Positions 5,094 to 49,131 of a stretch of 64,000 nt of DNA are shown here, one piece after another. The DNA is from Bispira polyomma (taxonomy: Eukaryota), in NCBI GenBank assembly GCA_965649765.1, contig OZ287757.1, forward strand, positions 36,208,001 through 36,272,000, given 5' to 3'. The notes beneath the pieces were generated by a model that worked only from the letters and a program-made list of their open reading frames with translations, was not told the DNA's origin and made no database searches. How positions within the stretch are numbered: the first letter of the stretch is position 1; each line of letters starts with the position of its first letter. Both the position numbers and the translations under genes were made by a program.

Positions 5094-5111
5094 ACTTTCA
5101 GTTTCGCTTTT
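5094..5111 (-). promoter_or_regulatory. IRF-E/ISRE-type element upstream of MIEAP-like gene A
   Basis: The minus strand reads AAAAGC-GAAACT-GAAAGT: three phased GAAA-type hexamers matching the GAAASYGAAASY consensus, ~940 bp upstream of ATG 6051. A second weaker site, GAAAAGGAAACTG, lies at 5418-5430. Confidence 0.55.
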
Positions 5112-6050
5112 GGCATAATATTGTGGATTATTTGAATGCAAACCTATTCCTGTATCCCTCACAAGTGAACACAATAATGAAAGTAAACAAGACACTAAAA
5201 TAATATTCTGTTGTAGTGTATACCATATTTAAAAAAGTGCTGTTTATATCTTGTGGTACTGGTATAGTAGTGAACAATATATGTGCTGCACTTATAACTC
5301 ATCTGTCATGTCCATCGTTATTGTGTACAAACAGTTCATTCAAGTACAAGTGTGCATATATAAAGTGAAGGGGCTATTATAACCAGTAACCAGTATAATA
5401 ACCAGGACGTTTGTCACGAAAAGGAAACTGATCATTCGGGAACTATTATTACACATGTGAATTTGTGAAACCTCTGGATAATATTTATATCATTTGGTGG
5501 TTGTTTTTAAAATCCACAGCAGTGGATATAATTGAATTTATTGAATACTTTTAAGTAATATTTGTCTATTGAATAACAGCTTTAGGAAATACATAGAAAT
5601 GTTAAAAAAGTTTCAGTTGGGAAATTGATGTGTTATATGGGGCACAGGATTGGAAAGCAACACTGCGACAACACAAACTTTTATGTGTACAAGAAAAAAA
5701 GTAAATTTCTCATATCAGGATATTAATTAAATCATAGGTGGAAATATTATACCTGTTGAAACTTTAATTTAAACTAAAGTTAACAGAAATTAATTGTTAC
5801 TATAAACTATTTTTTTTTATTATTTATCAGTAAAAGTTCTAAATTGTCAGTAGTAATTGATTTTTAGCATCCCAACTCATTAAATAAATTAGCATAAATT
5901 AATTTTAAATGAAAATTTGCAGTTCTATACAGTATATATGAGTTTCAAAATAAAGTTATATTAGTCTTGTGACAAAGTGCTTGACAATGTGTTGAGGAAT
6001 TCTGTGTCCAATTCATCTGACAATTTATAAAATAGAAATATTATAATAGT

Positions 6051-9000
6051 ATGGAAGACCATACATTACAAACATTTTGTCAGTTGCAATGCATGGCATG
6101 TCAAACACATGCACAACATTGTCAAACAGAGAGGGATTCTGAACAGAGGGAATTTTACAATGGACAGAACGATCAGTATTTGAAAATGTTCACCCAGGAC
6201 TATTTCTCCAAAACTTACCTGAAAAAAGTATGGAAGTTATACAACGATCTCTTCAAGACTGGGGACCTGTGTGAGTGTATAAAGGGGGAAAACCATTCCC
6301 GTGTAGATACACAACAGATATTGCAGCTGGAATTGGAACCAGGAAGTAAGACCAGAAATGACAAATGGCATCAGTATTGTGAGCTCTTGGAACATGGTAG
6401 AGATGTGGGTGTGATAAAGGGAGAATTGAATGATGTTAATAATAAAGAAAAAGAAAAGCATTTTGAAGTGCAGTATCATCATGCCAAAGGACGGCTGAAG
6501 TTCGTGATGCGTTCTGTACACCTTCTACGACGGTGTATCCAGCAGTTAGGTTTACGGTTAAAGGAGTATGAGACACAAGGGGAACTAGCGGAAAAGGTTT
6601 TGTATCAGCTGGATAAAATACTACAAAGCAATGACACTGATGGTAGTTCTTTCTGTGAATGTGGTATACCTCAGGTGAAGACAGTGTGGGACTTAAAAGT
6701 GGAGAACAGAAGATTAAAGGAGAAACTAAAGAAACAAGATAGTGACTTACAAACTGAAAAAGAGAGATATCAGAAACAGAAAGATACACTGATCCAAGAA
6801 AATAATGATGAACACAAGGCGGAAATTGATAAACTGTGTGTTGTAAATAAATTGAAAAACAAAGTCGAAAGATATAAAAAGGAAAATAAAAAATTAAGAG
6901 CGGAATCTAGTGAAAATCTCAGGAACGTGGAGGAATTGACTAAAGAATTGGACGATTTGATGGAGGAAAAGAACAGAAAAGAGTTAGAGATGCAAGCCAT
7001 GTGGAGGAATCATAGGCAAGAGTTGGAAGTAAAAGTGAAAACAATAGAAGAACTAACACAAAGGTAAGTGTACTTAATTTTCTAATTTAAAATATTTCAA
7101 ATTGTTATTTTTTTCAATCGACGAATGTGCTAGCCTTGTGATACTTCACTAATCATTGTTTGAATATCGGGAAAAATATAAAAATTTTAACATATCTGCT
7201 AACTTGTACAAGATCGAGCCATGTCGCCCACCTATTGTTTTGCCATTTAGGAATGTATGCTGTATGTATTTCTGAAACTTCTACCAAGCATTCAAACAGA
7301 CCATGGACTAAACAAAGTTAGAATTTCGGGAAATAAATATGAAATCTCAATATTTTTCATGACTTTGAATTTTAGTCTTTAGATGGACACTTGACAAAGC
7401 ATTCAAATGCATTATAGAATAAACAAAATTTAAATATCCAGAATGTTGTGTGATATTTAAAAACTGGCTGTGTCTCTAAGCTTAGATTCTGACAGGATCC
7501 TGATAGAAGAATGTGGCAATGCTGCATTGATTGACGGTGAAAAAGAACTAATTATTATCAGGTCCATACCAAGAGTAATGGTATATCCCATTGTAGAGTG
7601 TCTCATTGTGTGTATTTGTTTCCATGTTATAAACGCATGACAACATGATTACAATCAATGATTGTCAATTTATTGCACATGCCTATTAACCCCCGCTTGG
7701 GTAACAGATAACACTGATGCCCTATCAATAAACTAATTTTTACTCGGGATGGTGTGATTACTTTAGGTATCACCGAGGGCATTTTTTGTTGGGGAAACAT
7801 ATTGTTAGTTAACTGATAATTTTAAACTAATATTTAAAAAAAAAACATAAATAATTCACAATGTTAGTTAATCTGAGATCTAGGAACACTGTGTGGTAAT
7901 GTTACAATCCCCTCTTTCCCCAACTAAACCTTTGCCAGACTGTCCGCAAATATAGAAGTGGTGAAGCTTCTACTTCCATAAAAGTACTGTCCAGCATTGT
8001 TATCTGGTGATTTGACCTCCATGGGTCAATTCATTCTGGTATTGTTTGTAGTATGCATGAGATCTAAGAACACTGTATTGTATTTTTACCTATCCCCTTA
8101 ACATCGACTTTTTCTAGACTGTCTGCTGAGATGAGCCAGAAGGTGTCAGCCAATGAGAGTCACCTAGAGAACATCTCCATCAGGGAGCGACCAATGAACA
8201 TCGCGTCAGAGTACGAGCAGTTGTGTTCTAAGCAGTGGCTGCAGGCCAAGTCAGAACTGGATGATAATACACACATAGAAGAGAACAGGAAGATCCAGTT
8301 ACTACTGGACATATTGATAGTATGAGTTGTTTTCCTTCAGCAACTTTAAGAGTAAAAAAGACTTTCTGTTTCCTCTGTAAAACATAGCAAGAGGGCTGGA
8401 TCTAGATCTTTCTCAATCACTGCCCCTGTGTTATATGGAATAATTTCCCAGTTGAGCTGAGGTCACCAGAAACTGTTCAAGTTTAAGAAAAAACTCAATA
8501 CATATTTATTTATAACTTGTTTATCCCTAATAGTTCCCACCCAGCACACCCCAACACTCTTCCTTATTACCTTGACTATGCTTTTCGGACTTCTTGATTA
8601 CTTAAATGATTCTGTTGTTGTGCATTAGGAAATGCCTCGCATCAATATAACACATTAAAATGCATTTTACAAAAATATACAATCGAAATTCTTATGATGC
8701 TATATATGGTTTCACAATGGTATCATGTAAATTAACCCTTTCGATCCTAAGAGAATACTATCGCAGGAAACTGAAAGAATTTTTTGGGTAAAAGGTCACA
8801 GCTTACTGGTATCACTGAAACACAGACCACAGACTACATCCAGCATTCAATAACAGCCTCACGTATAATTCTTTTAAACGCGGAATTGTGCTGTACTAAC
8901 AATTTCCTATTTGAATGATCTGAAGGAAAATAAACTAATATTTTTAAGGATGTCAACTGCTTGCCGATAAACATAGGTTCTGGGAGTAACAAATCCCATC

Positions 9001-10851
9001 GACTGCTGACAGCATGGGGTCAAAATGGTTTAAGGTTTACTCCATTGTGGTACACTCAAACCTGCTTGAGAGACCACCTCTATAGAGACTCTACATATGT
9101 GTTAAAAGATTACACTTTATTTTTCCAAGACTAATGTTAAATAAATATTCAACCTCTATATAAAGACCATGTGTCAATAAAGACTATTTTTAAGGGTTTT
9201 CTTGGTTGGTCTTTATATAAAAGTTTCACCTTACTTACCTTATTCACCTTTTCACTTATATGGTAAATAGCGCCTGTCCTATCTCAATGGTGGATTGCTT
9301 ATTATGGGTAAGGTTATTACCACTGTACAGTAGAACCATGGCACAGGCTACAGCTGTGAACATATCATGTTGTAAAAACTCATTTTTTCTCCACTAAATT
9401 TGAATTTTCATGTTATTTGAAACTGATGTACCTCTTCTATTATACAGTGGACCAGCATTATGTTAAAATATATTGAGATAATAGAGGTTCTACAGCATAT
9501 TTATCCTTTCGATCCCTCTGCTGTCGACAAGCAGTTGACACCCACCAATTCCTCGCAGTAGGAAATGGTTCTTCAGACTCCCCTGTTAAATTTTTTTACA
9601 GGAGGTCCATATTTAATGCAGGAAAATTTTTTTGTGGGGTGTGGTTTAATGGCTATCTAGAACCTTGTGCAGAAAAATTTCCATCAGTTTCTGGCAGTTA
9701 CTTTCTCCCAATCGCGAAAAGGCTTATAATCACTGTCTGCACGTCTGTCTCGAGTATTTGTCATCAGCAGTTCTACAGTCATCTTTCTCACAAACATCCT
9801 GCTACATCACTGAAGCCCCCTCTCTTTAAAACCTTAAATACACAAATTAATTCTGACAAACCTATTGTTTTTCTACACAGACAGCAGAGTCGGAGGCCAC
9901 TAGATGTCACAGGATATTTGTGGACAAGTTGTCAGATATTTTGACCTCCCCACTGTGTGACAGGGTGCTGGTGTATGACTCTAGTACAATGGAGGCAGAG
10001 AGCAACAAGAAAGAAAAGAAGGATGAGTCTATGGGAGGGGGTAATACCATCCCCATTGAGATAACCAATCAGACAGGGGACTTCTTGAGGATGAGGTCCA
10101 GTACGGAAAATGTACAGGTTCTAGTACATGTAAGTTAGATTTGTACATATTCTACTTGTTAATGTAATGTGAGGTACACACGTAATGTTTAAAATGTCAT
10201 TTTGTGGTTTATCAGTTATTATAGTAACATGCATGTTTGTATTGTGTTTAGTTCTAATTTATGCTGCCTATATCTCACTTTATCTGGTTTTCAAAGCAGT
10301 AAGTCATCGTAAGAGTCTCTTGCCTCTATTAAGATTAAAGAAGTAAAAATGAGTAGCAAGATAGTAGGGCTGTTGAGAGACAATAGCTTTCTAATGGGTG
10401 AAAATGAATTTTAAACAAAATATAGTAAAATGTGGGAAGCCAATATTATTTGTTTGAGGTAAGGAGATACATCAGTAAGGAGGACCAGATGACAATTGAC
10501 CCTAGATAGTTCTTAATATACAGTATATCTGTCAATATTTTTCAGGCAATTCAGCAGACCTTAAACCACCAGTACACAGAGTTCAGTGAGCTTCTCCAGA
10601 TGGAGGGATTGCTTACTTATATCCAGGACAGTGCAATACTTGCTTGGAAGATGGTTCTCCAGAGGCCTCCGATGGGCTTCAAACAGCCAGGGATCAATAA
10701 ATCCTGGGCAGGGGAAAATCAGCAGGATGTCTTCTGGAACAGCTCCGATCCCACTGACCAGAGATCAAGAGTGAAGTTCTATGTCTACCCGGCTTTGTAT
10801 CACAGCAGTGCCTTGATGACCAAAGGCAGGGTCTCTCTGGAGTTAGCTTAG
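6051..10851 (+). CDS. MIEAP (mitochondria-eating protein)-C-terminal-domain-like coiled-coil protein, paralogue A (589 aa)
   Basis: Exons 6051-7063, 8118-8319, 9881-10129 and 10546-10851 are all GT-AG and phase-compatible (total 1770 nt, open to TAG). Motifs ENISIRERPMNIASEYEQLCSKQW, AWKMVLQRPPM and YVYPALY..KGRV are typical of the invertebrate MIEAP-like family. The end of exon 1 encodes a long E/K-rich coiled coil. Confidence 0.85.
8735..9029. mobile_element. Possible piggyBac-like MITE relic in intron 2 of gene A
   Basis: TTAA|CCCTTTCGATCC ... GGGGTCAAAATGGT|TTAA degenerate inverted ends; a related fragment lies at ~9500-9545. Confidence 0.35.
9051..9232. mobile_element. Degenerate Tigger/pogo-like MITE
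   Basis: TACACTCAAACCTG..GAGACCACCTCTATA..AAAGACCA..GGTCTTTATATAAAAGTTTCACC internal repeat pattern. Confidence 0.45.
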
Positions 10852-11964
10852 ATGTCTAGGTCACACATTCAGAGTTCAGTTCCATGAACGGCTCTGTTAT
10901 TAAATCTGTGATAATCTTAGGTTAGGAGCTGGACTACCGATAGAGAAACAAGGACCATTACCTTCACCTTATCCATAGATGTGTTGAACTGTCTTTAAAT
11001 TCTCCAGAAATTGCTCTAGGATTTGCTCGCTTTTTGATAATCAAAGTAAAACATGATTGTTTGTGAAGAAAACAATGTGTCAAACTTAAATGCAAAAAGA
11101 AAATGTATACTTGGTGGTAACATGTATATGTAGTTATCCCATGAGAAAACTTGTGTATTCAAGTGTGTGTATACTTAGCCGTAACTTGTAAATATGCAAC
11201 AAAGATGTGTCAGAAACGTGACAAACTGTAACCACCCTTACGAAATAATGTAGTTTTTCAACAGATGGTCACGGTTGACAGACATGATTTATCTGCTTAT
11301 ATACCTGTATATCCTATATCCAAGGCGAAGCAAGAGTTTTTCTGCACCTCCAAAAGTCGTAAAATTACTGTATATTCTTGGTTTGGAATCAGTTATTCTG
11401 ATTCTAACATGACAAACTGAAATATTACCTTAATCTAGTTATACTTAAAAAACTATATTGCTTAAGTACTCCTGTGGGGAACTAATTAACTAGATGTAAG
11501 AGAGTTTATTGAGGACAATGATCTAGGCCATTTAGACGTTGAGGTCCTAGATTTTGACCATACTTTAGAACAGATCAGCAACACAGGCTTGTTCATTATA
11601 AATATGTATGTGTTCACTTGTTCAGAGGTGTTCACTAACGGATGTTTTACTGTGGTGCTAAATTGGCAAATCTATCTAGTCACACAGCCATATAGCATTG
11701 TTGGTTGACAGTGGTAGATAATGGCATATTATCGTAACTTAACTTGGGCTTGTGATCCCCTAGTAACCATCAGGGCTGGCCTTTTGAAGTCATATATACC
11801 TCTGTTTCACACAAAAGCATAAAGAACTAGGTTCAAACTGTCAAAAACATTGTACAAAATTCCTTGTGTTTTTGACGGATGATATCCTAATGGTAGTATA
11901 TATAGAAAACATCTCGAGTGACAAGTATTACAAGAAATCACCGGTGTTAGAAAATATAAACCAG

Positions 11965-12071
11965 GGCCCGTATTCATGAAAGGACTTAGCCAGGTCTTAG
12001 GCTTAAATCTAGTAAAAGAGTATACTGATTTAAGCCTAGGACCTGGCTAAGTGCCTTCGTGAATACGGTCC
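11965..12071. mobile_element. Hairpin MITE, Harbinger-like (CWG target)
   Basis: ~45-bp inverted arms GGCCCGTATTCATGAAAGGACTTAGCCAGGTC.. / ..GACCTGGCTAAGTGCCTTCGTGAATACGGTCC with CAG on both sides; near-identical copy at 33007-33113. Confidence 0.85.
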
Positions 12072-12074
12072 CAG

Positions 12075-12182
12075 GGGCGATGTTCAAAAAGAGGTTAAGT
12101 CTAGGCATTGTCCTAAATATAACAGATTAGTATACTAGACCTAAGACAAAGTCTGGGCTTAATCTTTTAGTGAATAACACCC
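12075..12182. mobile_element. Second, older hairpin MITE of the related family, abutting the first
   Basis: GGGCGATGTTCA...TGAATAACACCC flanked by CAG 12072-74 (shared with the previous element) and CAG 12183-85; similar central AGTATACT. Confidence 0.65.
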
Positions 12183-13518
12183 CAGTTCTGCAAGCTGCCA
12201 AAATGGGATTTCCTGCATATTATTATTTTTTCCTTTTCTGGTAGACATATTATTGTCAAACAAAATATATTGGGATTTACTTTATATCAGGAATAGGGGA
12301 ACTTTCAAGTATTATTCAAGATCTGTTAAAACATCTACGTTTATTATCTAGATTATTTTGCAGTGACCAATAAATGTTTTCATTATTAGTAGATATATAC
12401 ATCCGTATATTATATTTTTAAATTGAACTTTGTAAACAGTTGTCAGTATACACTTTTTTTTCTGTCATTATGTTTACATATGTTTTGTAGTATATGTCAT
12501 TATTAAATAGTAAATTTTCAATAGGTAAATAAATCATTCAGTCCAAGAATATTTTTCTTATATACCGACCACAGGAACTTCTGTCCCTGAATGTTACTTC
12601 ATTGTTCAATGTTTATTGTATTTGTAACCACATTTTCTAATACACAAATATTAATATTACAAAGATATCTAAAATTTTAAATGAACAAATTAAAAAAAAT
12701 CCTGCTCCTTCTTGGGTGACTAGTCAGTACTGACATACTAAACATCTACCTTGGCAATACACAGATATTTGGGCCAAATAATTTGGTCAATAAGGACATA
12801 ACAATTTTTTGCAATACCATGCCATTGTAAAGATTGAAATAAAGTTGCAACTTGGCTGGGATTTGATAATTTTCTCTCTCGCTCACGAGGCGGATGTTTA
12901 TCTGGTGGACTAAAGGGAAATCCTGCAAGGTCAAGTTATTAATGCGCACATATGTACACTAGGATATTACACTATCCTACTCAACAAAATCCTACATGCT
13001 TGATTTCTGCTTTACCGCCGTTGTTAAGAGATGTGTATATATATATATTATACATACTGCTATAACTGAATTAGCAAGTCTAATTAAACACTCTAAGAAG
13101 GCATTTAAACCAGTTTCAAATTATTACATGCCCCATGAAGAAGCCCTTTACTGTGTTGTCTTTCTAAAAAATCATCGGCGCACAGTTTGAGTGACACCCC
13201 TCTGCTTGACTAGGTCAATTGCTTTCAACCAATCCATAAAGGTCTTGCATATTATTTCCAACATGGCGGCTGTACCTGATAATCACTTGATAATATAAAT
13301 ATAACAACCCTTAGTCGGCTTGATTACTTCCAACTGTTAGAATAGTTTTAGCTGCTGAATAAGAATTGCACTGGAGGTTTTGGTGCTGGGAGTTTACAAA
13401 CATTTGAAAACATCTGTGCACACAAGATAACAATATGAAAAGTTAACTGCTGGAAGAGGTTCCAAATTGGTCCAAAACCCAAGCTGGTTAATAATGCAGT
13501 TTGACACAGAGTAATGCC

Positions 13519-13800
13519 CTGATCCCACCAGCCGTCACGCTGGCAGTCATTAAAAAAAAAAAAAATTATGTAGGGTTTGCATGGTGTTTGCAGTGGTTAT
13601 TGTTGTAGACGTGCAAGTACATAATCTGACGTGGGAGATGTGATACAAGAAATTTCAAATGTTGAACCATTTATAATTTGGACAAGCAAACAATGTAAGA
13701 ATGTTGAGGGTAATTATTTGCATATTTGACTGTTGTGAGTATTCTAACATAATGATAAGTAACTACATGTAATGTAGCATACAAATACGTGGATAATTCC
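13519..13800 (+). mobile_element. Truncated copy of the GTCCCACCGG-terminus MITE family
   Basis: CTG|ATCCCACCAGCCGTCACGCTGGCAGTCATTA.. aligns with the left end of the element at 20768. Confidence 0.55.
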
Positions 13801-13869
13801 GGGCACACAAGTCTGTAAACGTGACTAGCATAGGTTAACAACAGTTAATATATCTTAACATAGATTTTA

Positions 13870-15058
13870 TGTAAACCTTAATCACACCTACAGGTGCTAA
13901 TGTCCCACAACGTAGCTTATGGCCTGTTCACACTTACACGTGCTAACATCCCACGACATAGTAAAGCACAATAAACTGAAAATGTGGTAGTTCCATGTCA
14001 AAGTGACGTCATTTTCATAAAGGTGCAGTCGATTGTGATGTTTTATTACGTGTTGTGACGATGTTTGTACTTATACACGCAGAGCGGGGCAAAAAATTGA
14101 ACACTATACTGGTAGGACATCACTACCTACTAGTACGTAGAGCTACTATACTTCTACTTACTGGTGCGTTATGCTGCGTTCAGCTACTTAGAGAAACGTT
14201 TCATGACAGATATTTGACAGTGGAGAAAAATATCACTACTTACTGCTACATTATGCTACTTATACAGACGAGCGAAGATGTCTTCGAAAAACAGAAACCT
14301 CTGCCACGATTATCTCCAACAGTTTGAAACAATTGTCCCACAGGACCAAAAGGAGACGTTTTCGGTAAGATATCATCCATTAAGCAATGTCATGGAACAA
14401 ATGCACCAGGAATCCTCACTTTGTCATTACTTTCTACTATGTTTTAAAACAGTTCAAAATGTCATACACACCTAGCTCCAGCACGTGTAGGTGTGACCAG
14501 GATTAAAGCAATATAAACTGAAAACATGGTAGATTTGTGTCAAAGTGACACCAGTTTCATAAAGGTGCAGTCGATTGTGACATTTTGTGACATTTTGTGA
14601 AAATGTTGGTACTTTTACACATGGAGCGGGGGCAAAAATCAAACACTTTACTGGTAGGATATCAATACTCACTACTAGGTAGAGCTACTGTCCTACTACT
14701 TACTGCTGCGTTCTGCTTCAAATTGAAACTTTTCTTGATGAATACAGATGAGTGAAGACAAACTCACTACTTACTTTTACGTTATGCTATGTTTTGCTAC
14801 CTTATGCTACTTATAAAGACAAGTGGAGACGTCCTCGAGAAACACCACAATTATTTGAAACAGTTTGAAATAATTGTGAGGGTGGACCAAACGGAGAAGT
14901 TTTCGGAACGATATGATCAAATAAGCAATGTCACGGAACGACGCACCAGGGATCCTCACTTTTGCATTACCTTTTACTACATTTATACTAAGTTTCAAAA
15001 CAGTTCAAACCATCACACATATGTAGCTCTAGCATGTCTACGTGTGACTAGGCTTTAA
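13870..15058. mobile_element. Tandem degenerate Harbinger-like non-autonomous elements (~540-bp unit x2)
   Basis: ataaactgaaaa..gtcaaagtgac..ttcataaaggtgcagtcgattgtga recurs at ~13971 and ~14512. Termini GGCCTGTTCACACTTACACGTGCT / AGCACGTGTAGGTGTGACCAGGA are inverted. Confidence 0.65.
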
Positions 15059-17214: not shown

Positions 17215-17249
<35 letters not shown>

Positions 17250-19000
17250 ACGGTGATATAGGACATACCAATTCTGAAGAGCTGTAAGTACTGATGCAAC
17301 ATTGTTACGGAGGCAAAGTTCAATATCAAGAATATAAATCTATACAATTTTCTGAATATTCAACCAATGGTATAATTATTTGAGATGCCATCTTATATTT
17401 GCTAGTAGTCATAGAGGCAGTGTGTGTTGTATTTAAATAGAACATATAAGGCTTGATGGATGACACAGCCTGTGAACAATTAATTGGTTAAAAATTATGC
17501 ACTACCCAGAAACATAAAGTGACTATCAGATGGTTGTAAATCTCTTCTGTGTCAGTTTAACCATGATGAATATTGTGAAACTGTATGGATAGTAACCTGC
17601 TATGTTTCCATAAATAAATGAGAAGATGCCCAGCAACCATGTTTGTCAGTAATGGCTTGTCAACCGGTCCACAAGAAGACCTGCAGCACCTGCTGCCCCT
17701 CACCAATGCCAAGCGAGTGAAATTATCAATAAACTGGTTACACATCCCTATCAAGCCATTAAGTGTCGACAGACAGGCAGGGTGGAGAACTCAACACCGC
17801 TCCAGGCATCAATGGGGATCTAAACTCACCTACTTTACTATTTATGTATTGCTGGTACATATCACAAGCCACAACTTCTTTCACCAGTGAACCACGGCAC
17901 TACTTTAAGCCCCCGGCCTACAGGACTGTAACGAAAAAAGAGATTTATTCATTTATGGAATAACTTTTAAACACTGCTTGAAATAATATCTAAAATCATT
18001 ACTTTCAGGTAATAAAAAAGTATAATATATATATATTTACATATATAATTTACAAATTGTATAACTGATAACTAAATTGATGGCAATGCTTATAATATTT
18101 CAATACTACAACTTTGTGTTAGTTATGTTATACAACTAATTTAAAATGTACAGCCACAAAGTGGGTAAGAATACTTAAGTTCATTGTACATTTTGTGAAG
18201 TTTCATGACGTTTTTTTGACAAATCTGAAACAGATCAAAATATATCAGAAACAGCTACCTTATTACTACCTACTACTAGGTAGTGCTACGTACTGTTACC
18301 TAATGTTACTGAATTCTACTTAATGTTACTTAAGGCTGACCAATGGTACTTAATTATGCTACAATTATGAAATGATTGCAATTTCTGAAATGTATCTGGG
18401 ACTAGAACGAATGCAGACTTATCGCCACAACATTGGAAGGAATTGTCGTTTTGTGGGATGTTTCAAATACTTTCAAAAATATAGTACTATTTGCTAAACG
18501 GTGAGGTGTAACTGGGTTAACATGTTTAAAAGAAATACAATTTAAATGAAGTTGACAAATGATTGCATGATCTATGACATCCTGAAACTATGATTTGACT
18601 TTGGACTCCGTTTCTCTAAGATGATGGTACATGCACAACATTCAGTGATAGTGCAGATATAAAGCAGAAATTCTAACACACTGAGATTGTGCCGCCGATT
18701 CTGGTTCAGGAGAAAAGTCTTCAATTTGTTTATTTTAATTAATATAATAATATAAACTAGTGTAGTATCAACTAAAACAGATGAACCCAAAGAATAATTC
18801 CAAAACAAGAACTCAACCGAAACATTTTTCTTGACAAACTAATTAATTAATGTGTGTATCAGTTTCAGACAAATTTCCTCGTTTTACAAGTATAACCCAC
18901 GCCTACGTCCAGGCTAAAATAACAACGAGAGAATTGACGTCCTCACTGGACAAATAATACTGATAACTCGACGACAGTACTGGGTCACATGTATAAATCT

Positions 19001-19019
19001 AAAATCGAAAGTGAAAGTG
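19001..19019 (+). promoter_or_regulatory. IRF-E/ISRE-type element upstream of MIEAP-like gene B
   Basis: AAAATC-GAAAGT-GAAAGTG, three phased hexamers ~460 bp upstream of ATG 19477; CRE-like TGACGTC at 18935-18941. Confidence 0.6.
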
Positions 19020-19476
19020 ATCAGATGGCTATCAATAGAAATTCAATACACAGTGCGAGAAGTCGCTTGTCACTAGACCAGTGGGTGTACGTAATAGTAT
19101 AATAACAAACACATACAGTGTATCAACAGACCTTAACATTAAAGTTTCTTTTTTTGTTCGGTGGAAATATATATATGTTGTATGTGTACAATGAACCTCT
19201 CTCTCTATATATAGTGACAGTATATTGAAAATAAAGCTGCAGTTATATAATTAATTAGTCAGTGTACTGTGTCGGTGAACACTTTCTCCAGGGATTAGTT
19301 TCAGTTGGGATAGTGGGCATACAAAATACCAAATGAAAATTTTTGATATTTTATGCTAAAAACCTAACAAATAGTGAACATTAATTTCAGTGAGCTTCTC
19401 GAAAAAAAGAGAGAGAATAATAATATCACATGACCAAAGTGGTGATATATAGGGCCTGACAACATCAGAGTTTACT

Positions 19477-22400
19477 ATGGGCAATTGCTGCTCTTGGTTG
19501 CTGGGCAACGATAATGACTCAGAAAACGTAGGCTTCGTGGCGAGTGCAGAAAGCCATGGAGTCTATCAACCTACCAGAGGCCAAACTGTGCCGCCAAGCC
19601 AAGAGTCCAAGCAGAAGATTCAGGAGCAGGGGAAATTGATAGCAAGCTTACAAGAGGACAAGAAATCGTTGGATGAAATGGTACAGCATTTCAAATTAGG
19701 GAAAGACCAGGCTGTGAGTGAATGTAAGCAGAAGGATGACAAAATTCGGAAGCAGGGCGGTGTGATAGAGAGATTAAAGGATGACAACAAATCCTTGAAT
19801 AATCAGGTAGACAAGATCAAATCGGAGAAGAAATTTGCTGAAAATGCATTTAAGAAGAAGTTATCTGAAATAACAGACAGGTGGGTACAATTTGTGAATT
19901 GTTGTGTGTATGGTTGTGTGCTTGGGTGTGTTTGTCTCGTGAAAGGTTGTGTGTATGGTGTGCTAGTGTGTGTTTGTCTAGTGAAAGACTCTATGTATGC
20001 GGAATCAAAAACCAGAACATTTACAAGTTTACTATCAATCACAGAAAATGTTCAGGGGATCAAGCTTGATGTGCAGCCTTCTAGTCTGACTTCTATGGGT
20101 CTTGGCTGTTAATAAACTTTTCTGCATTACATCTGTGTGACTTAATTCAAATGAAGTAATGTTGAAGTCCTTTTATATGTCGGTAACATGTACTTGTGAC
20201 CATTTATTTTAATAGAGCTTTAAGTGCTCAACTTAAACAATCAGTCAGATTAAAACCTCACCCAAGCCAGAGATATGTGCTCTTTAAATTTGAGGTTGAG
20301 TTGAGCTTGAAATCTTTCAAGAATATGGTCCTTGGATCAAACTATATTATAAACTTCATAATTGAGTATTTACTCAATCTACAGCTATTTCATACAGTAA
20401 GTGTGGGGCATTGACATCTCCAGTGGCATTATTTTGACTTTGATGATAGAGTTATGGCCTGTGCCTTAAAAATCATGTGCGCATCACATATCTTTTAATC
20501 TATGGTTGATACAAATATTTTACCTTTGGCAAAAGTCACTTGCCCCAAAAGTCATAAAGTTAGTCTGGTCCCCGGTTCGAATCCCTGTTGGGGGAGTTGG
20601 TCTGGTTGTGGCAAGGTGCCTGGTTTGGATCCTAATAATGCTGCTATGTTTATTGGTGGGCTAACAAGCATTGGGTAAGATGTGAATATGCCACTGCCTA
20701 CTAATTACCACCCAGGCTATGTTGTAGGACCATCCCTTCTCGGAAAGAACGGGCACCTTATGTCCTGGTCCCACCGGCCGTCACGTTTGCTGTCCTTAGA
20801 AAATTAATTTGCGTAGTTTTTGCGTGGTATTTGCAGGAGCTAAACTTGTGTTTTTGCATGAGCATTGTGACAGTTCGCGTAGTGTAACAGCTATATATGT
20901 CACAATGGATGAATGTCACTATGATGCAAAACTTGCAAATTGACGGAAGAACATGTACATAAACGTGTATTGACTTACTTCTGCGACAGATTAAGTAGAA
21001 TTACTTAGATATAATGTACTAAATGACGAGGTTTAACATAAATTAACGTACTTTAACGTAAAAAATTACGTCCTCTTACGTGTATTGGCCTACATATACA
21101 TGCTATATGAGGGATAAAATATGTACTTTGACGTGCACTTAAGCATCCCCTGTGAGACCTAACAGGTTTTAACGTACAAATACGTAAATTACTGACTCCT
21201 TTCACGTGAGAAAACGCAATATTTGGGCTTTGCATCAACTTTGCAGCAACTATTTACACGGCCCTTGCGTGAAATACATAAACTAACATACATCCGGTGG
21301 GACCAGGCCATTAGAGGATGATATAGAAATACAGTGCTACATAAATGCTTCAAAAAATTGTCCACTTGTATTTTATTTAAAATTGAAGACTGTCGAAAGA
21401 AATGGAAGCTAAAGTGGCCGCCAATGAGTCAGACTTGGAGAATGTCTCTATAAAGAACCGGCCGATGAATGTGGCGGAGCAATACCAGCTCTTGATGAGT
21501 AACCAATGGTTTGATGCCAAGACAACCCTAGATGAATGTAGCCCCAATACCTCTGAATGGGAGAAAGTCTACCTGCTCAACCGGATTATAGTGGTAAGAT
21601 CATCTGTAATATCAATAAACATTAGTGTGTTTGTTGAAAGGGTTGCTGCATCTTCATGTCAGAACTAATATTATAATTTTTTTTTGTTTTACAAGCAAAT
21701 ATATGAGTATTTCATTTTCAGATATAAAATAATTTATTACAAAAAATGAATCAATTAAACATTATGGAATAAAGTTCCCATAATCACAATATTAGGGGAA
21801 AAGGTTTTTTTATTTATTTTAGCAATAGGTTATTGTTCCATATAGGCTGTTTTGAACTTCTTTTGGAAGGCACATATATTTATACTTTTGTAATTTGTTG
21901 CACAATGGAAAATGTATTTCTTAACTCTCAAAATTAATAAATTGATTGGTTCATCAAATTTATCAGAAGATGTATACCCGAAAATTATTTGTTTCTCATC
22001 ACTGAATTGTAATAGCCAGTCGTAGTCTAACCTTGTGTATATTGAGTTCCAAAGATTTACTGCAAAAGCAAAACAGGTGCTCAATTGTTTCTGTGTGGCT
22101 ATTACATAACCTACACATACTAGAGTCCTCATAATTGTGAAGTAATGTCTAACACCAATAATTCTATTCAGGATTTTGTATTGCATCCAGGTAAGCGAAA
22201 CTTCATATGAAAATTTGAAAAACACCTATATTATTTATATATAATATTTTTCTAAATCGTCATTTAGGTCTTCATGAAAAATTTCATTCCACTTTTTTTA
22301 AACTTGGCTACAAAAGGAGCTTTGTTGAGCATGTTATATATATGACCAGCACTTTTTTGTTTTTTTTTCCAGTGAAGTTTTTACCTGATAAGGAATTGCA

Positions 22401-25400
22401 GGTACAACTAATTGATGCTAAGTTTGGTTCTATAATAATAATATTTTTTTTATATTTTTGAGTTTGTACATACTTTTTAGTTACGCCATACACATAAAGT
22501 GACCATTTTTATTTAGTAAATCACCTACATATCTAATGCCATGATCAAACCAAGTTGAATAAAATATGCAATGCCTACTGATCATGTTGTTGTGCCAAAG
22601 TGAACTGTATAAAATGTCATTAAGAGACTCCACTACACATGTGTCTGTCACACTTTGCCACAACTTAAACACATCACACCAGAAAGGATTTTTTGTCTTG
22701 TTACAAATTTGTTTACACCATGAAGAACCAAAATACCGCTAATTCATAACAAAAGTTTAGTTTATAATTAAGTTTAGCCCAAGGTGCATCTGAATCTGTT
22801 ATTAATCTTCTGATCCAAGTCATAATGACTTTATGAAGCCTACCATTTAAATGCCCGTTCACAACCAATTTTTGGTTTACTTTCTCAGTTTTCCATCCCA
22901 CCAAAAATTATAATTTAAATAATTTAAAGATTTAATAATGGTAGGAGAGGGATTTGGGATATAAATATGTGATTCAATTTTGAAATGATAAGTATTTTAA
23001 TAAGAATAGACAATATAAAAGAACATATAATGAATAAATATGGAGATTGAGGGTTCCTTAGGCAGCCACATTTACTTTGGAAAGGTTCAGATAGGACACC
23101 ACATTGGATTACTGAGGCCTTGATGTTAATGTTAAAACCTTTGATCCTATGCATAAATCCTTGACAAAAGCCTAAATAATTCTAAAAAAAACATTATAAA
23201 GAAAAGTCCATGAAACTGAGTCAAGCGCTTTTTCAAAGTCGATAAGCATTAGCAGACCTTCTTTTTCATACGTTTCAGTATAGTGCATAATGTCTTATAC
23301 TAAATGGGTAGAATTTTGTTAATTGTATGATCTAAAACAGGTTTCAATCGGTTTGCTATAGAAAGTGATGCTATTTTATATATGACACATAGTAACAAGA
23401 TCGCACACCAATTCTTTAAGCAAGACCGGTGTTTGTTGCCTTTCAGAAGACATGAAATAATGCAATGCCTTAGAGTAAGTGGCATTTCCCCTCTTAGATA
23501 GCTGAGATTAATTGCTTTGTAAATGAAGTACTTCAATTTGCCCCAAAAATATTCAGCTGGAAATGCATCAATTCCTGGTGTTTTACCATTTTTATACTTT
23601 TATAGCTTGTCCCAGCTCCTGTAGTGTAAGCTGACCTTATAAAGATTGTCCTTGTTCATCGTTTAATCTATTATTGTTGATATTCTTAAGCAATGCTTTT
23701 TAATTAACATCCTTTGGTTCATCAGAATGATTGTTGAACAAAGTTTCATAAAATACTTTTGTTTCTTTCAAAATGTTCATTGATGACCCTTCCGTCTTCC
23801 TTTTTAATGCATCTAATAGTTTTTTTCTAAAAATGATGATCTAATGAACAAAAATATTTGCTTGGTTTCTTTGCATTTTGTAACCATTGCATACAAAGTC
23901 TCACAATTTGACCCTTTAGCCTTTCCTGTCTCAATGCTTCTTACTCATCTTTTTTTGTCGTCAAGTAAATTTATTACAGCAGAAATATTGCAACATTTTT
24001 TTATCATTTATTTCTTCTTGCAGTTGCTTTTCTTTAAAGCTTTTACATTTTTTTAAGTAACTAGCAAATTTGATAGTATCTCTGTATATCCTCATCAATG
24101 TTTCTAAGAATAAATTGTAGGCAAAACAATCCCTCACAGATCCTAGAATCCAGTTCCAATATGTACTTTCTATAATATAGTAGAGTAAGAAACCTGCAAT
24201 TGGCCACTTTTTCCATGATTTGGACACATTTTGTTGCATAATTAAGTCACAACTGCATGTATTTTGGTTATATTTGACACAGTACTGCCAAAACACCATT
24301 GAATATATATATTATACTTATTAGTTGCTGTAGGAACAGGTTAAATAAAGTGGTTAAAGTGGTCATTTTATAAAAATACAGAGGAACCTGAAATTGGCCA
24401 CTTTGAAACATTCTATTGTAATTTGTCACTTATGTACTTTATGAATCACTATTGACACTACCAAAGTCAATTGCAGTTATAGCTCAGTTGGTAGCACTCC
24501 TGTGGGAACATTTTTGTCAATTACAGGCAGTAATCCAAAGGTTGCTGGTTCTATTCTAGAAGGGGGCAAGATTTTTTTTTTAATATTTTTCTTTAATTAC
24601 AGGCAGTAATCCAAAGTATGACAGTTCTATACTTGAAGAGAGCAAGTTTTTTTTATAAAGATAGGGTTTAGGTATGTGTATCATACACAAACAATTATGG
24701 AACAAACACTCTGACATTTATAACTTTATGTACATTTCTGTGAGCTGTATTGATTTTTTTAATGTGTTTATTAGCTAGCCACAGTATATTTCTTTAATTT
24801 TTTGTACTATCTGAGAGGTAGGTTAAATCTAAAAGATGTATAATAATTCAACCACAATTTTATTTCATAAAATCTTTAATATTATAAATATGAAATGAAC
24901 AAATAATATCTCACAATAAATACATTTTAACATATCAAAAGTAAGAGAAATTAAAATTATTTAATTGTGTAAGAATAGAATAATTACATCTTATGCTTTA
25001 GTGTAAATCTATTATGGTGTGTAATTCGAAAAGATTTGGTTTTTTAAATATTAAATGATTTAGTGTATTACAAATATGAGAAATAACACACAAATATGGG
25101 AGTTTGCCACTTGAGTTAAATTGTTTAGTATTCCTCGCATCAGTTTGTGAGATAAATCTTTACTATGTTGTAAAAAGATATTATCCTATCACTCTGCTTC
25201 AAGACAAATCTAGTTTTGTGCACTAGCATTTGCCAGATACACAAGTAAAAATAAAGAAATGTAATCAAAGATTAGTTGAAAGGTTAGAAAAAAAAATAAG
25301 GCTGGGATTTTTTTTTGATTTTGTAAGTTATACATAGTTACATTGTTTTATTTAAATTTTAAAACAAGGTGTGAAATTTTTACATGATAAAGTGTTGTGA

Positions 25401-28400
25401 AAGTGTGTCTTTTTGTCAACAATCAATAACTGCATAGCTAATTTTAATTGTTATTGTTATTTATAGTTATACATATTACAATGTACATAACCACATCATT
25501 CACATAGTATAAGTGAGTGTATGTGCACTCTTTATCAAAATCAATAAGTAGGTCACACATGTGCCATGTACAGCTCAATGCACTGAAGTAAACAAAGTTC
25601 TCTCCATTTTAATATTTGCTATTTCAACATTAGAATTACAAAATAAGTATATTTGTCCCAACATTTACATAGGAAATTAAAAAAGGTTTTAACTTGTGGA
25701 AAAGAAATGCGATAAACTGCATCATTATGACAATTACAAATATTGTATATATGTTGTAAAACATAGCAAAATTTATGTGCTTTACTACGTCTAGGTGAAA
25801 CATGTGCCATTATGTAATCTTATCTTTAGTTGTAATTAAAACTGTTTATTTATTTCTGTTGAAGATACAGTAGTGTCAGGTCATACGATATAAATGTTTT
25901 ATTTAAAAAAAATATTCTGTGATTGTTTTGTCCAAAGCATAATCATCCACAAGTAGTATAAATACTTTACCAAATCTTTTAACTACTGTACTACATGGTC
26001 AAAAAAATTTGATAACCTAAACTTATTAGATCCAATGTGTTACCTCCCTCAGAAAGTACCTCAAAAGTCACCTATTTGCATTAGCCTTCCCTAATAAACC
26101 CCTCTCTCATGTATGGCCACATCTCCGTGAATTACTGAGCCTTTTATATTCTCCAATTATAGGATTTTTGCCTTCCATTTTACTTTTTGGTTTTCAACTC
26201 ACTGCCTTTCTTTTATTAAAGAATGTTTTGTGTCTGCAAAAACTTGGATTTAGATTTGATTAAATATACACATACTGAAAAACATTGGGTCACACAACCC
26301 ATTTTTGAGCCCAGCCCCTGCTTCTCACCAAAATATTGTATTATCGGAACATGTTGGAAGAGCAGGATTTTTGTTCAAATACTAGAAGGTTTAAAATAAA
26401 AAAGAGGCATTTGTTAAATGTTAATGTTTTACTTCTATAGCGATACAATCTTTGACCAGGCAGCCTCTATACAGGTGTACATCCTTGTCAATATTCCAAA
26501 AAAAAAAATAGAAAATGAATGGGAGGAAATGTTAGTGATCAGAGTTCAGCCGTAACCAGCAGGCAAAATGTTAAGGACAATAGCAAAATATACATTTAGG
26601 AGAGGAAAAATGTGTTCATAAAATTGAGTTTTCAGATGATAGAAGTTTGGATGCTAGAAGTTCTATTGTACTAGTTATATTTTCACATTTTCTCATTATT
26701 TGTCCTTGAACAGGTCTGTGAACAAGAGCCACTGGAGCTCTTCAAGCTGTTTCAGAGTCAACTTAAGCAGATCCTTTACTGTCCACAAGTGCTTCTGGGA
26801 ACTTCAGAACACAGTTTGGATCCAAAGGATGTTGCAATATTTGTAGAGGTATATTATTAGGTTTTTACCATTTTAAATACTAGATAAAGGTAGATAAATT
26901 TAAATAGTGCATCAGGGGATATTTGAGCTACTTTAGCTAATGAGTTGGGATGGTGACAATTTATTGCCAGTAATATGTGAATTATTTTAAAGCCTTAGGG
27001 TTAAAGTTTAGCTAGAGTGCTAATTGTTGCTGATATGATAAAGCAAAAACCAAACTAGCACCCAGGTAGCAGGAGTTTGCTGACATATGTATATCTACTG
27101 ATACATAACACCTTAGTGGCCCAAAGGGCTTGTATACAGCTGACTGTCAGATTATTAATCAACCAATTGGAGTATATAGAAATGTAATTTGTGTCTTATC
27201 ATCTGAAATCACATGCTTGAATTTTTTTGCATAAAAATTTGCGCGTATCCTATGAAATAGTTGTAATTTACACAACTTAAGTGAATCAGTGCACTTCTTT
27301 TTATTTATAATCAGTTGTTGGTTAAAATATACCTGAAATTTTTGTACCTGGCAAGAAAACTTTGGGCTTTAATCAGACAATAGCCAATAGTGGAGTATTA
27401 ATTCCGGTGAATTTGTGAAATTTTCTTCTAGCTTAAATGTACACTCAAACAGTATGCAATGCTCCCAGTAGATTGAACTGGTGATAAGCACCAAAAGTTA
27501 AAGTAACAGTATGTATAGGGGTGTTTTAGTACAAAAGAATAGGGAAGACATGAAAGTGGGCGACTTAAGTTTTACTGTTTTTGGAAACTATAAATTTGGA
27601 TAGTAGAAGTTCTACTCTGGTCAAGTGAATTAATACCAGGGAGGTATTTTCATTCAACTTTCTGTGAGAAAAAAATGCAGAGCAATACTTATAAATCTGT
27701 TACTCATGTAGATATATATTTAACAGTTTAAATGTCCATCAAATTTATTTTAAACACCAAGCCAACTTTGTATAGCTATTTTATATACTTTAAGTCGATA
27801 ATTGTTTTGTTTCATAAGGATGAAGAAAGGTATATCCTACCTAAACAACTGTCCAACAGCGCTGGAGATTTGCTGCGGAAAGAAGCTGACAATGTCAACC
27901 TGGAAAAACTTCTGCAGGTGAATGTTAAGTGATACACTGGTGTGTAAATTGTTATGTGTATAGCCACATTTAAGTATGGAATACTAGTTAATGTTAACCA
28001 AGTTTATACTTAATATTACTAATATTTAATAGAGGAAATATTAAATAGTAAAATTGGCAATATATGAGTATGACAGACATCTGCTTTCTAATCCCTCTTT
28101 TAATAGGGCTTAAACATCCTTCATTCAGATTGAGCACCCTAAAATTGTGCCCAAAAATTAGCCATTTAATAGCTTTTATCACAAAACGCCTGTTGCAGTG
28201 GTTTATATGTCCTTTTGACAAAAAATTGGTGTCTCTGTTATACTGTTCAGATCTCTGTAGACATGCCACCACATAAACAGTACATATAGCACAATCCCTA
28301 AGTAAAGCAAGAAAACAGTTAACAGGTTCACGTTAAACAAGAAAATCACTGATCTCAAAGCACGTCACTTCTTGTGTGAGCATTCCGTTTTGAGAAAATG

Positions 28401-29694
28401 TGGTCTATATATTACATTGTGTAGACTAGCAGATGAACACTTTCCCTTGTCCTGACTAAACCTGGGGAATTATTTGTCACAGGAAGTTTTAACAGATTTG
28501 TGTTAAGTACCTTGCCCGACTGTTCAATCTCCAGTCCAGCAGCTTACATAGACTAAAAATTACTGGGTCATACAAACTTTGACCAAATAAAATCAATATA
28601 ACAGAGTTGTATAAACAATGACCCACTTAATCAGGTATAATTTAGTGAGTTAACAAAACTAACAATTCTGATAAAATCGAATGTTGATTTTTGATTTTAT
28701 GTTCTAGATGGTTATTAGTTAAATGCAGATGAAACATTACGATCCCAACCAGGCTCATGTGTGTCGTGTATGTCAGTGAGTTTAGTGGAAAACCTGCTTA
28801 AGTATTTATTTTTTCAATGAGATAAGTTGAAACCTTGCTAAAGGGCTTTGTTTTAGATGCCACTTTTAACATAGTTTTTTTTACTTTTACGTTTGTTTTT
28901 CAGAGAGTATACACAACATTGCAAAAAGAGTTTGAAAATATGCAGGAATGCAAAGCAATGTGGACTGCGGTCTATCAATCAGAAGCTTTAAAGCACTACA
29001 TTACATCTCTTGTGAAAATTGTATGGAAAATGGTGATCCAGCGCCCACCGATGAAATTCAAGCACTGTACTACATGGAAAGGCGAAGATGTACATGACAG
29101 GTATGTATCGTAAAAGCCAGGCAGATCGAATTGCTTAGTTTAAAATGCAAATGCTTACAGTCCAATTTGAAAAAATAGTCTGTGGGTGACATGCTTGGAA
29201 AAGATTGGAAATTTAAAATCATTGTTGTGTGTAATTTCAAAGTCAAACCATGTTTGATGCAAGTGAACTTTTTTATTATCGAATTGAACACCTTCTGATC
29301 ACCAGAACAACTGCCCCATCTGAAAGTGTTAGAATGCAATTCTTAGAATTTTCTTCGGCTCAGCCAATTGCATTAATTCAAAAAATATTTTTAGCTAAAT
29401 AAATTAGTTGAAATACAAGTCTAATATAAGAATATTTGTGGATACCAGCCCAGAGCAACTTCCCCATCCGAGAGGCAACTGGGGGTCATCTGATGACCAA
29501 ACCAACTTCCTATAACCAAGAGGACACAGTAGACCAGTAGTTATAGGTTATGTTGGTATATGTGTACTTCTAGGTACTGGTCCAGCAGTGAGTCCCCTGA
29601 TGCAGAAATATTTCAGGTTTACCCAATCCTTTACCATGGAGACCAGCTGATGGCCAAAGGGAAGGTGTATGGGATGCTGAAGGAGAAAACATAA
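19477..29694 (+). CDS. MIEAP-C-terminal-domain-like coiled-coil protein, paralogue B (386 aa), predicted N-myristoylated/palmitoylated
   Basis: Exons 19477-19880, 21389-21593, 26714-26848, 27819-27917, 28904-29100 and 29574-29694 are GT-AG and phase-compatible (1161 nt to TAA). MGNCCS start; ENVSIKNRPMNVAEQYQLLMSNQW, VWKMVIQRPPM and VYPILY..KGKV align with paralogue A. Confidence 0.85.
20565..21330 (+). mobile_element. tRNA-derived (CORE-like) SINE split by a MITE
   Basis: B box GGTTCGAATCCC (20574-85) and CORE-like CATTGGGTAAG..CCACTGCC..CCACCCAGG; the sequence resumes as GCCATTAGAGGATG after the MITE at 21307. Confidence 0.5.
20768..21303. mobile_element. MITE with GTCCCACCGG termini and CWG target (Harbinger-like)
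   Basis: CTG|GTCCCACCGG ... CCGGTGGGAC|CAG. Confidence 0.7.
21675..24150 (-). mobile_element. Decayed L1/Tx1-clade LINE ORF2 in intron 2 of gene B
   Basis: Minus-strand fragments IISCLLKGNK..LKNW..ILLLCVIYKIAS..IANRLKPVL, LIDFEKALDSVSW, GVLSEPFQSKCGC..SPYLFII and WMQYKILNRII, with many frameshifts; a T-run near 21675 may be the poly(A) remnant. Confidence 0.9.
24478..24570 (+). pseudogene. tRNA-Tyr-like degenerate sequence (tRNA pseudogene or SINE head)
   Basis: ATAGCTCAGTTGGTAG..ATCCAAAGGTTGCTGGTTCTATTC resembles the D-arm and 3' half of tRNA-Tyr. The anticodon arm is disrupted. A partial duplicate lies at 24596-24645. Confidence 0.5.
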
Positions 29695-44918: not shown

Positions 44919-45325
44919 TGTAAGTCACTGCGGGGCTGTAGACAGCATGACCAGTCAGTCGCTAAAAGTCAGTAGTTTACTGTATCTGTGTCCACACACC
45001 TATGGGTATTGACTTAAAGCCAATCACAGCTTAGCTAAAGGAAGGTCCCTCTCTTAAATTGTTTACTAACCTGCTAGCCAATCAGAAACAGTATAGAGGA
45101 AGGTTTTCCCTCCTTTTTCTCATATGTGGCATTAAATAATTAGTGACCAAAGTGTCAAGAAGTGGAAAAATTTAAGCAGCCACATTGGCAGCAGCCATAT
45201 TGAAAAAAAAACGAACTTATATGAAGTTTTCTTTACAACTTTGACTTGTTTTAGTGTTTTTGGTGTGTTTTTATGTGTAAAGTAATAACTAATGGGAAGA
45301 TACGTCGTAACCACTAGGAAATGTA

Positions 45326-49123: not shown

Positions 49124-49131
49124 TTACAGGT

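Follow-up and report, generated by a model that had tools for sequence, protein, structure and literature searches.

Two tandem MIEAP-domain genes of Bispira polyomma, each preceded by a triple IRF-type site: candidates for IRF-controlled immune induction

The MIEAP domain (PF16026) forms the C-terminal part of vertebrate Mieap/SPATA18, a protein described as p53-induced and mitochondrial. In bivalves, the MIEAP orthogroups (OG24) are expanded (53 genes per genome vs 0.6), as are the Hsp70 orthogroups (68 vs 4.4), and the MIEAP expansion is interpreted as damage control or stress adaptation (PMC8382680). A MIEAP homolog is also encoded by a Crassostrea gigas nidovirus (PMC11848433). Poly(I:C) induces oyster IRF2 and IRF8, which activate ISRE reporters (PMC5557890), and the ISRE is bound by oyster and scallop IRFs (PMC13524488). 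Knockdown of single IRFs by 40-60% in Nematostella left cGAMP-induced genes unchanged (PMC8713801). MIEAP-named rows were not found among those covered in the tables of PMC7064767 (one of which is pre-selected by GO terms), PMC8713801 and PMC13118829, oyster and Nematostella challenge studies among them, in which naming may miss the family; a search for the name in the PMC11521996 supplements gave three rows, belonging to the host proteome. In the literature searched, none of the MIEAP genes is listed as an interferon-stimulated gene (ISG), and neither IRF-type promoters nor an acylation-like N-terminus nor a GrpE-like fold was found for the family. To our knowledge, invertebrate IRFs have few described direct targets. 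GrpE and GrpEL1 are the nucleotide-exchange factors of DnaK and mitochondrial Hsp70.

Two MIEAP-domain genes, A and B, are found in tandem in the window, i.e. the whole stretch of 64,000 nucleotides that was analysed (Table 1). Both have open reading frames and GT-AG introns; they encode 589 and 386 amino acids and contain 3 and 5 coding introns, respectively. Along 264 aa the proteins share 37% identity (E 3e-47), and two introns are common to both genes in position and phase. The initial annotation had called the paralogues old and divergent, with unequal intron counts, which agrees with these values. PF16026 is matched by the last exon of gene A (37.7 bits, cut-off 27); a 66-aa exon of gene B alone reaches 26.3 bits, and protein B aligns to protein A across the whole domain. 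A coiled coil precedes the domain in both proteins (A, 154-346, three segments; B, 45-138, two segments; delimited with a crude heptad heuristic). Exon 1 of gene A has generic coiled coils as Atlas matches, and PADLOC and NCBIfam gave weak coiled-coil matches only. The N-termini of the two proteins are unrelated to each other; that of gene B (Gly2, Cys4, Cys5, Ser6) is presumably myristoylation/palmitoylation-like. The PF16026 match, the N-terminal coiled coil and the tandem paralogues are as in the bivalve family, which differs in being described as mitochondrial damage control. Between the triple site and the start codon are 12 ATGs in gene A and 7 in gene B, so that spliced 5′ exons have to be assumed; given these 12 ATGs and acceptor-like sites, gene A may have a further coding exon 5′ of exon 1. 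No Rfam match was found.

Table 1. Features of the two MIEAP-domain genes and of their 5′ regions. Positions are those of the window. Strand:., not stranded.
Feature	Positions	Strand	Description
CpG-rich patch holding site A, promoter-like	4851..5150	.	o/e 1.04, reached by 2.7% of 300-bp windows
Triple IRF-type site A	5094..5111	-	939 bp upstream of gene A ATG
Second element, gene A	5609..5622	-	14-mer, one IRF core AANYGAAASY, 428 bp before ATG
Gene A coding exon 1	6051..7063	+	Unique N-terminal part and coiled coil
Gene A exon 2	8118..8319	+	MIEAP domain start; PF16026 positions 1-43, E 0.016
Gene A exon 3	9881..10129	+	MIEAP domain, helical middle
Gene A exon 4	10546..10851	+	MIEAP domain end, predicted GrpE-like helix and beta head, stop codon
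CpG-rich patch holding site B, promoter-like	18801..19100	.	o/e 1.15, reached by 2.2% of windows
Triple IRF-type site B	19001..19019	+	457 bp upstream of gene B ATG
Second element, gene B	19297..19310	-	14-mer identical to 5609-5622, 166 bp before ATG
Gene B exon 1	19477..19880	+	N-terminus with Gly2, Cys4, Cys5, Ser6 and coiled coil
Gene B exon 2	21389..21593	+	MIEAP domain start; flanking introns as in gene A in position and phase
Gene B exon 3	26714..26848	+	
Gene B exon 4	27819..27917	+	
Gene B exon 5	28904..29100	+	PF16026 positions 105-147
Gene B exon 6	29574..29694	+	Predicted beta head end, stop codon

The structural model of the last exon of gene A (pLDDT 94) suggests that the MIEAP domain ends in a fold resembling the GrpE head, a likeness that is new here. 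GrpE chains took ranks 1-4 of 48,161 in VIA-align (Z 6.4, 5.9, 5.9 and 5.1, all below 8 and moderate; rmsd 4.3-6.3 over 79-90 residues), the next match having Z 2.8, and ranks 1-9 in Foldseek (E 0.29-3.6); GrpEL1 was among the matches. The single-exon model was used because GrpE (Z 5.6-6.2) was tied with unrelated helical bundles in the model of a whole homolog. As modelled, the domain follows GrpE and GrpEL1 (PF01025) in the order of its parts: a long helix, then a helical bundle, then a C-terminal beta head. Unlike in these proteins, the helical insertion is larger; the sequence identity is 6-15%, and PF01025 was not matched by the window exons (at E 0.1) or by full-length homologs (at E 0.01). 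The sequence search for a solved structure gave none (best E 1.2), and no clear viral fold match was obtained (best E 0.008, low TM).

Both genes are preceded by three phased GAAA-type hexamers. The initial annotation had placed these less than 1 kb upstream of each ATG and had added that double-GAAA sites occur elsewhere; the coordinates and distances check out, and the double sites (8767-8778 and 56929-56940) exist and are intronic. Further double sites with one mismatch are found in introns of genes A and B (8361-8372 and 22191-22202) and at 56051-56062. AAANNGAAANNGAAA has two matches in the 64,000 bases, at 5096-5110 (-) and 19002-19016 (+), both of which stand before the two MIEAP-domain paralogues. 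Its mean in shuffled sequence is 0.12 (1 of 100 shuffles reaches 2), and 0.2, 0.08 and 0.08 matches are expected under Markov orders 1, 3 and 5. GAAANNGAAA was observed 10 times in the window vs 3.55 expected. Sites A and B fit the IRF-E/ISRE consensus, and the tandem site of this type before genes A and B goes beyond chance, as judged with the consensus rather than with a weight matrix. As in the ISGs with ISRE/IRF-E promoters and in the oyster IRF targets, phased GAAANN repeats with a period of 6 and AANNGAAA cores are found close to the gene, here upstream of the start codon.

A second shared element, missed by the initial annotation, is present in both 5′ regions. Overall, the promoters are not alignable, as had been claimed, except for this identical 14-mer, which carries one more IRF-type core and is the best blastn match between them (E 0.043). 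Four of the seven independent clusters of AANYGAAASY are located in 2 of the 64 kb, i.e. the 5′ regions of genes A and B; if the core were as frequent there as elsewhere in the window, a further one in both regions would be expected with a probability of about 0.002. Window-wide, the single core is not enriched (9 vs 6.8 expected). It is absent from the 1 kb before either of two genes that we take to be 4-coumarate-ligase-like from their exon translations (ATG at 39331 and 55085), an acceptor just upstream of both ATGs placing their true promoters probably outside the sampled 1 kb.

The sites could be real and yet not respond to virus, a constitutive IRF or Blimp-1/PRDM1 using them to set expression in a tissue or cell type (gill or gut epithelium, haemocytes). 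AGTGAAAGTG, a Blimp-1-type sequence, has its single exact occurrence in the window within site B. Against Blimp-1, the GAAAC cores of site A and of both second elements would suit IRF better, and against a tissue role, phased sites in threes are usual in IRF targets that are inducible. The tissue role is favoured by the over-representation of the MIEAP Pfam domain in gill-enriched mussel genes (PMC5549309) and by the control of haemocyte proliferation by oyster IRF1 and IRF8 as well (PMC13524488). This explanation is judged unlikely, at roughly one chance in a handful.

According to a second explanation, the motifs arose by chance in AT-rich DNA and were chosen afterwards, and both genes, controlled in some other way, are typical of an expanded family. 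Any periodic triple is common to 31 of the 1953 pairs that real 1-kb tiles form (the gene A/B pair included; most of the others are AT microsatellites) and to 10 of 2000 Markov pairs. Corrected for the choice of the motif after the fact, the chance of the shared triple is therefore about 0.5-1.6%, above zero. A common 14-mer or longer is found in 62 of 2000 Markov pairs and in 4.6% of the 1953 real pairs, i.e. 3-5%. Coincidence is also favoured by the double sites in introns and by the very many windows that a scan covers. Against it, only the shared triple has a known reader among the periodic motifs, and three further features agree with one another: the second core, which is independent, the CpG peaks and the location in single-copy DNA. 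The CpG o/e of the whole window is 0.40, compared with the patches of Table 1. The DNA of site A belongs to an unbranched contig (4605-8423, depth about 15), as does that of site B (17709-20213, depth 13-14); this DNA is single-copy, and an origin of the sites from a transposon or a tandem repeat was rejected. Coincidence is considered improbable.

The listed DNA-like read contigs of three sequencing runs show zero differences across both promoters. Other candidate elements were set aside: CRE-like 7-mers near both sites (too frequent, 8 in the window), a TATA-like hexamer upstream of site B (108 in the window) and NF-kB-like sites at 41.9-42.4 kb (inside a repeated unit).

p53-type sites (at most 3 mismatches, no spacer) have 12 matches in the window, none of them within 2.9 kb before either ATG. 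No three-unit heat-shock element was found in the 64-kb window, and this type of element was rejected. A role as SPATA18-like mitochondrial quality-control or general stress genes is very improbable: PF16026 is present, the expansion has been read as damage control (PMC8382680), mitochondrial Hsp70 would be a fitting partner for a GrpE-like fold and a SPATA18-named protein changes in freshwater mussels under cadmium (PMC11036304), but both types of element are lacking near the genes, the N-termini of A and B are unrelated, and gene B begins with an acylation-like signal and no obvious presequence. Genes A and B share the C-terminal domain with vertebrate Mieap/SPATA18 and differ from it in having IRF-type sites and no nearby p53-type sites.

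The family extends to microbes. The HMMER search for homologs gave 78 matches, of which two long ones (P0003 and P0052), false by Pfam, were dropped; among ten matches looked up, P0003 alone was named. Of 63 Endozoicomonadaceae genomes, 6 carry MIEAP genes; the protein of Endozoicomonas atrinae shares 25-26% identity with A and B along about 255 aa (E 8e-17 and 4e-16). In the tree, which includes no SPATA18, one bacterial pair clusters with the subfamily of genes A and B (100/100), a join flagged as long-branch. The nearest ESM Atlas clusters of a homolog are mostly Mollusca. No related locus was found in the metagenome or viral contigs searched, nor any animal locus with flanking DNA. The nidovirus and Endozoicomonadaceae homologs have the domain in common with genes A and B; unlike these, they are intronless and often multi-domain or arrayed. 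Capture of the domain by such microbes fits a role in host-microbe conflict.

The initial annotation proposed immune effectors. The lack of p53-type and heat-shock elements near the genes and the microbial capture agree with an immune role; the term effector needs refining, because a domain ending in a GrpE-like fold makes a chaperone cofactor likelier than a directly antiviral protein. Each protein would combine a coiled coil with a helical bundle and a GrpE-type head. As a cofactor, it would serve an Hsp70-type ATPase, most plausibly one of the HSPA12 type, in the role of nucleotide-exchange factor or of adaptor. Such an Hsp70 partnership is tentatively put forward, at somewhat less than an even chance, and HSPA12 as the partner is a more doubtful proposal. 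In an oyster table, 51 of 57 HSPA12-named rows are up after poly(I:C) at at least one of three times; the rise is mostly less than twofold, in a pre-selected table in which 82% of all DEGs rise, and many of these rows are also up in the seawater control by day 10. The search for Hsp70 motifs in the window gave none, and no Hsp70 Pfam match was found among 90 ORFs of at least 200 aa in 14 bacterial MIEAP regions, which divergent HSPA12-like genes could escape. The gene B product would probably be held at a membrane through N-terminal acylation.

The preferred reading is that genes A and B are two old tandem paralogues of an invertebrate-expanded MIEAP-domain family, each promoter being read by an IRF factor through the triple site and the further single core, and that both genes would be switched on in an interferon-like (RLR/STING-IRF) response. 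It retains the IRF-inducible, ISG-like family of the initial annotation as a candidate: the sites cluster before both genes beyond chance, the DNA is single-copy and CpG-rich, and a second IRF core recurs. It applies to two genes of one genome, with a motif picked after being seen; the double sites in introns, the single core without window-wide enrichment, the fit of site B to Blimp-1 and the unchanged cGAMP-induced genes under IRF knockdown in Nematostella count against it. From the motifs, IRF binding at the sites is probable; immune induction is slightly favoured, and IRF-controlled immune induction of both genes is given an even chance. Much more speculatively, and with a low probability, MIEAP proteins may belong to an old two-part immune module, made of an HSPA12-type ATPase and a GrpE-fold MIEAP cofactor, whose halves would both be multiplied and IRF-controlled in molluscs and whose cofactor would have been captured by the nidovirus and the Endozoicomonadaceae to interfere with it.

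If the preferred reading is true, the two genes would represent a new class of invertebrate interferon-stimulated-like genes. The MIEAP domain would acquire a biochemical function, that of an Hsp70 cofactor, with a bearing on human SPATA18 too, and a possible reason would be given for the presence of this domain in a virus and in symbiotic bacteria of marine invertebrates.

Genes A and B, the two neighbouring MIEAP-domain (PF16026) paralogues, encode proteins that match at 37% over 264 aa, have two introns in common in position and phase and are sisters in a 16-row tree (support 87/94). Their coding exon counts differ, in line with the initial annotation, which had described divergent paralogues with unequal intron numbers. 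The PF16026 profile scores 37.7 bits for the last exon of gene A and 26.3 bits for a 66-aa exon of gene B. The N-termini of the two products are coiled coils unrelated to each other. The gene B product starts with Gly2, Cys4, Cys5 and Ser6, an acylation-like beginning that supports the ATG chosen; gene A may have a further exon upstream. ESM Atlas protein clusters closest to a MIEAP homolog are mostly from Mollusca. Among 30 feature matches of a MIEAP-domain query in this atlas, 7 are clusters sharing no Pfam family; the best of these, at score 0.93, consists largely of eukaryotic members, most often ciliates, and the domain may therefore extend well beyond animals.

Features of the window and of related bacterial loci (L, locus; G, Endozoicomonadaceae genome)
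Feature	Position	Strand	Remarks
RING-finger gene	455-997	+	single ORF, ~180 aa; GC- and CpG-rich DNA, 5 kb before gene A; promoter mostly beyond window edge
Triple sites A, B (AAANNGAAANNGAAA)	5096-5110; 19002-19016	-; +	
Shared 14-mer	5609-5622; 19297-19310		upstream of genes A and B
Gene A	6051-10851		four coding exons, 589 aa; open frame, GT-AG introns
Gene B	19477-29694		six coding exons, 386 aa; open frame, GT-AG introns
LINE-like fragments	22481-24311; 43495-44238	-	decayed; first within long second intron of gene B
Acyl-CoA/4-coumarate-ligase-like paralogues	39331-40020; 55085-59473	+	first exons only of first copy
Repeated unit	41800-42450		three copies, each with an NF-kB-like 10-mer, probably repeat-derived
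Retroelement, presumably DIRS-type	45311-50106	+	reverse transcriptase-like and tyrosine-recombinase-like frames, stop-broken
Double IRF-type site	56929-56940		perfect; intron of second ligase-like gene
Gypsy-like reverse transcriptase	63203-63907	+	end of window
Intronless bacterial MIEAP genes	L001:5001-6338; L022-L035		G001, G007, G008, G010, G052, G053
C-terminal J-domain proteins (HPD motif)	L022:5103-6494; L025:3553-5067		divergent, upstream of MIEAP genes
BIR-BIR-RING inhibitor-of-apoptosis gene	L023:14361-15749		G007; ~4 kb from MIEAP gene
The ligase-like and DIRS-type names are based on the translations.

Both triple motifs lie where they had been placed initially, their ends 939 bp (gene A) and 457 bp (gene B) upstream of the ATG. 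The IRF/ISRE, p53-type, heat-shock and Blimp-1 motifs used here were matched as consensus words. Nucleic-acid sensing would most likely activate or induce an IRF, which would bind the phased sites and switch on both genes. We give such immune induction through IRF an even chance; IRF binding and induction are what we infer from the observed anatomy of genes and sites. Control of the sites by IRF or Blimp-1 free of any immune induction is unlikely; site B additionally matches a Blimp-1-type word.

Chance as the origin of the triple sites is unlikely. The motif AAANNGAAANNGAAA occurs twice in 64 kb, against 0.12 expected from shuffles (two reached in 1/100) and 0.08-0.2 from Markov backgrounds; given two sites, the probability of one per 1-kb upstream region is 5e-4. 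Since the pattern was picked post hoc, two 1-kb pieces were compared for periodic triples of whatever tetramer (homopolymers excluded, period 5-8): one is shared in 31/1953 real tile pairs (A/B pair counted; mostly AT microsatellites) and in 10/2000 simulated pairs. GAAA at period 6 is the sole periodic triple in each of the two upstream kilobases. Both sites lie outside tandem repeats and inside unbranched single-copy contigs of DNA runs. Their CpG observed/expected ratios are 1.04 (A) and 1.15 (B) versus 0.40 for the window, peaks in the top 2-3% of windows. The caveat that double sites are not exclusive stands: GAAASYGAAASY with at most one mismatch gives 8 matches, 3 of them inside the two triples.

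The promoters had been called unalignable; this has to be amended by one identical 14-mer, the top blastn match between the 2-kb upstream regions (E 0.043), which holds an additional IRF core. Sharing of a 14-mer is weak by itself (3-5% of 1-kb pairs), and it counts here because this motif was thereby sought a second time. The core AANYGAAASY has 4 of its 7 independent clusters within the two 1-kb upstream regions, and an extra core before both genes has a chance of about 0.002; window-wide it is not enriched (9 observed vs 6.8 expected). The ligase-like genes have zero cores in the kilobase upstream of their ATGs (39331, 55085), an imperfect promoter control because their ATG exons begin at acceptors. 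SPATA18-like control of both genes is quite unlikely; no p53-type site was found near either start, nor a three-unit heat-shock element within the 64-kb window. As read from the sequence, the regulatory signature is real and well placed, for two genes of a known but unexplained family.

Under induction by IRF, the products would probably act, through a GrpE-type head, on an Hsp70-type ATPase, and their unrelated N-termini would set place or client. The model of homolog P0014 (33% to gene A; 76-row alignment) is confident across the MIEAP domain. Its top Foldseek match is GrpE (E 0.16), and in VIA-align GrpE is among tied matches and alone spans the long helix and beta head. For the last exon of gene A folded by itself (66 rows, pLDDT 94), the four listed GrpE entries take VIA-align ranks 1-4 among 48,161 chains (Z 6.4, 5.9, 5.9, 5.1; next-best chain 2.8), and Foldseek ranks 1-9 are all GrpE chains. 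The scores are moderate and PF01025 (GrpE) gave no profile match, so this end of gene A is predicted to be shaped like GrpE rather than to be a GrpE. No Hsp70 was found by motif in the 64-kb window or by Pfam around the bacterial MIEAP copies.

PF16026 exceeds its cut-off in 6/63 Endozoicomonadaceae genomes versus 0/14 controls. Some copies are in arrays (one of three genes), some proteins are multi-domain, and in Endozoicomonas atrinae the intronless gene adjoins a bacterial glutamate dehydrogenase. The window's subfamily takes in the E. atrinae protein and homolog P0059 (support 100/100, the join being flagged for a long branch) in a tree omitting bacterial copies L004, L010, L013, L015 and L017 and some repeated domains. 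In two genomes related J-domain proteins (29% over 398 aa) are encoded divergently upstream of a MIEAP gene; a J-protein next to a GrpE-like protein places two Hsp70 cofactor types side by side. No publication joining MIEAP with Endozoicomonas was found. An intranuclear parasite of mussels is reported to have inhibitors of apoptosis derived from its host (PMC11521996), and a 64-kb Crassostrea gigas nidovirus is stated to encode a MIEAP homolog (PMC11848433).

Bivalves have 53.1 genes per genome in the MIEAP orthogroup versus 0.6, and 68.1 versus 4.4 in that of Hsp70 (HSPA12 unnamed there), an expansion interpreted as stress control (PMC8382680). In an oyster supplement, each of the 57 entries under the name heat shock 70 kDa is a 12A/12B; after poly(I:C), 51 are up, 1 down and 5 unchanged, with mostly small fold changes and 82% of all DEGs in the table up anyway (PMC7064767). 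An HSPA12-MIEAP immune module is unlikely. Mollusc IRFs bind or activate ISRE (PMC5557890, PMC13524488), the motif letters not being printed in PMC5557890; in Nematostella, partial IRF knockdown had no effect (PMC8713801). The domain is enriched in gill (PMC5549309), a schistosome study lists one MIEAP-named gene among those that snail lines with a single phenotype have in common (PMC13619432), and a cadmium response is reported (PMC11036304). No MIEAP link to GrpE or ISRE was found in these three articles, PMC10336010 or PMC9980059. Searches on interferon, oyster, STING and antiviral/invertebrate contexts, with subscription papers and preprint supplements outside their scope, gave no published MIEAP-IRF link; MIEAP with GrpE gave an unrelated match only. 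Hints that the MIEAP family takes part in host-microbe conflict come from independent lines, and a biochemical role for it can be proposed.
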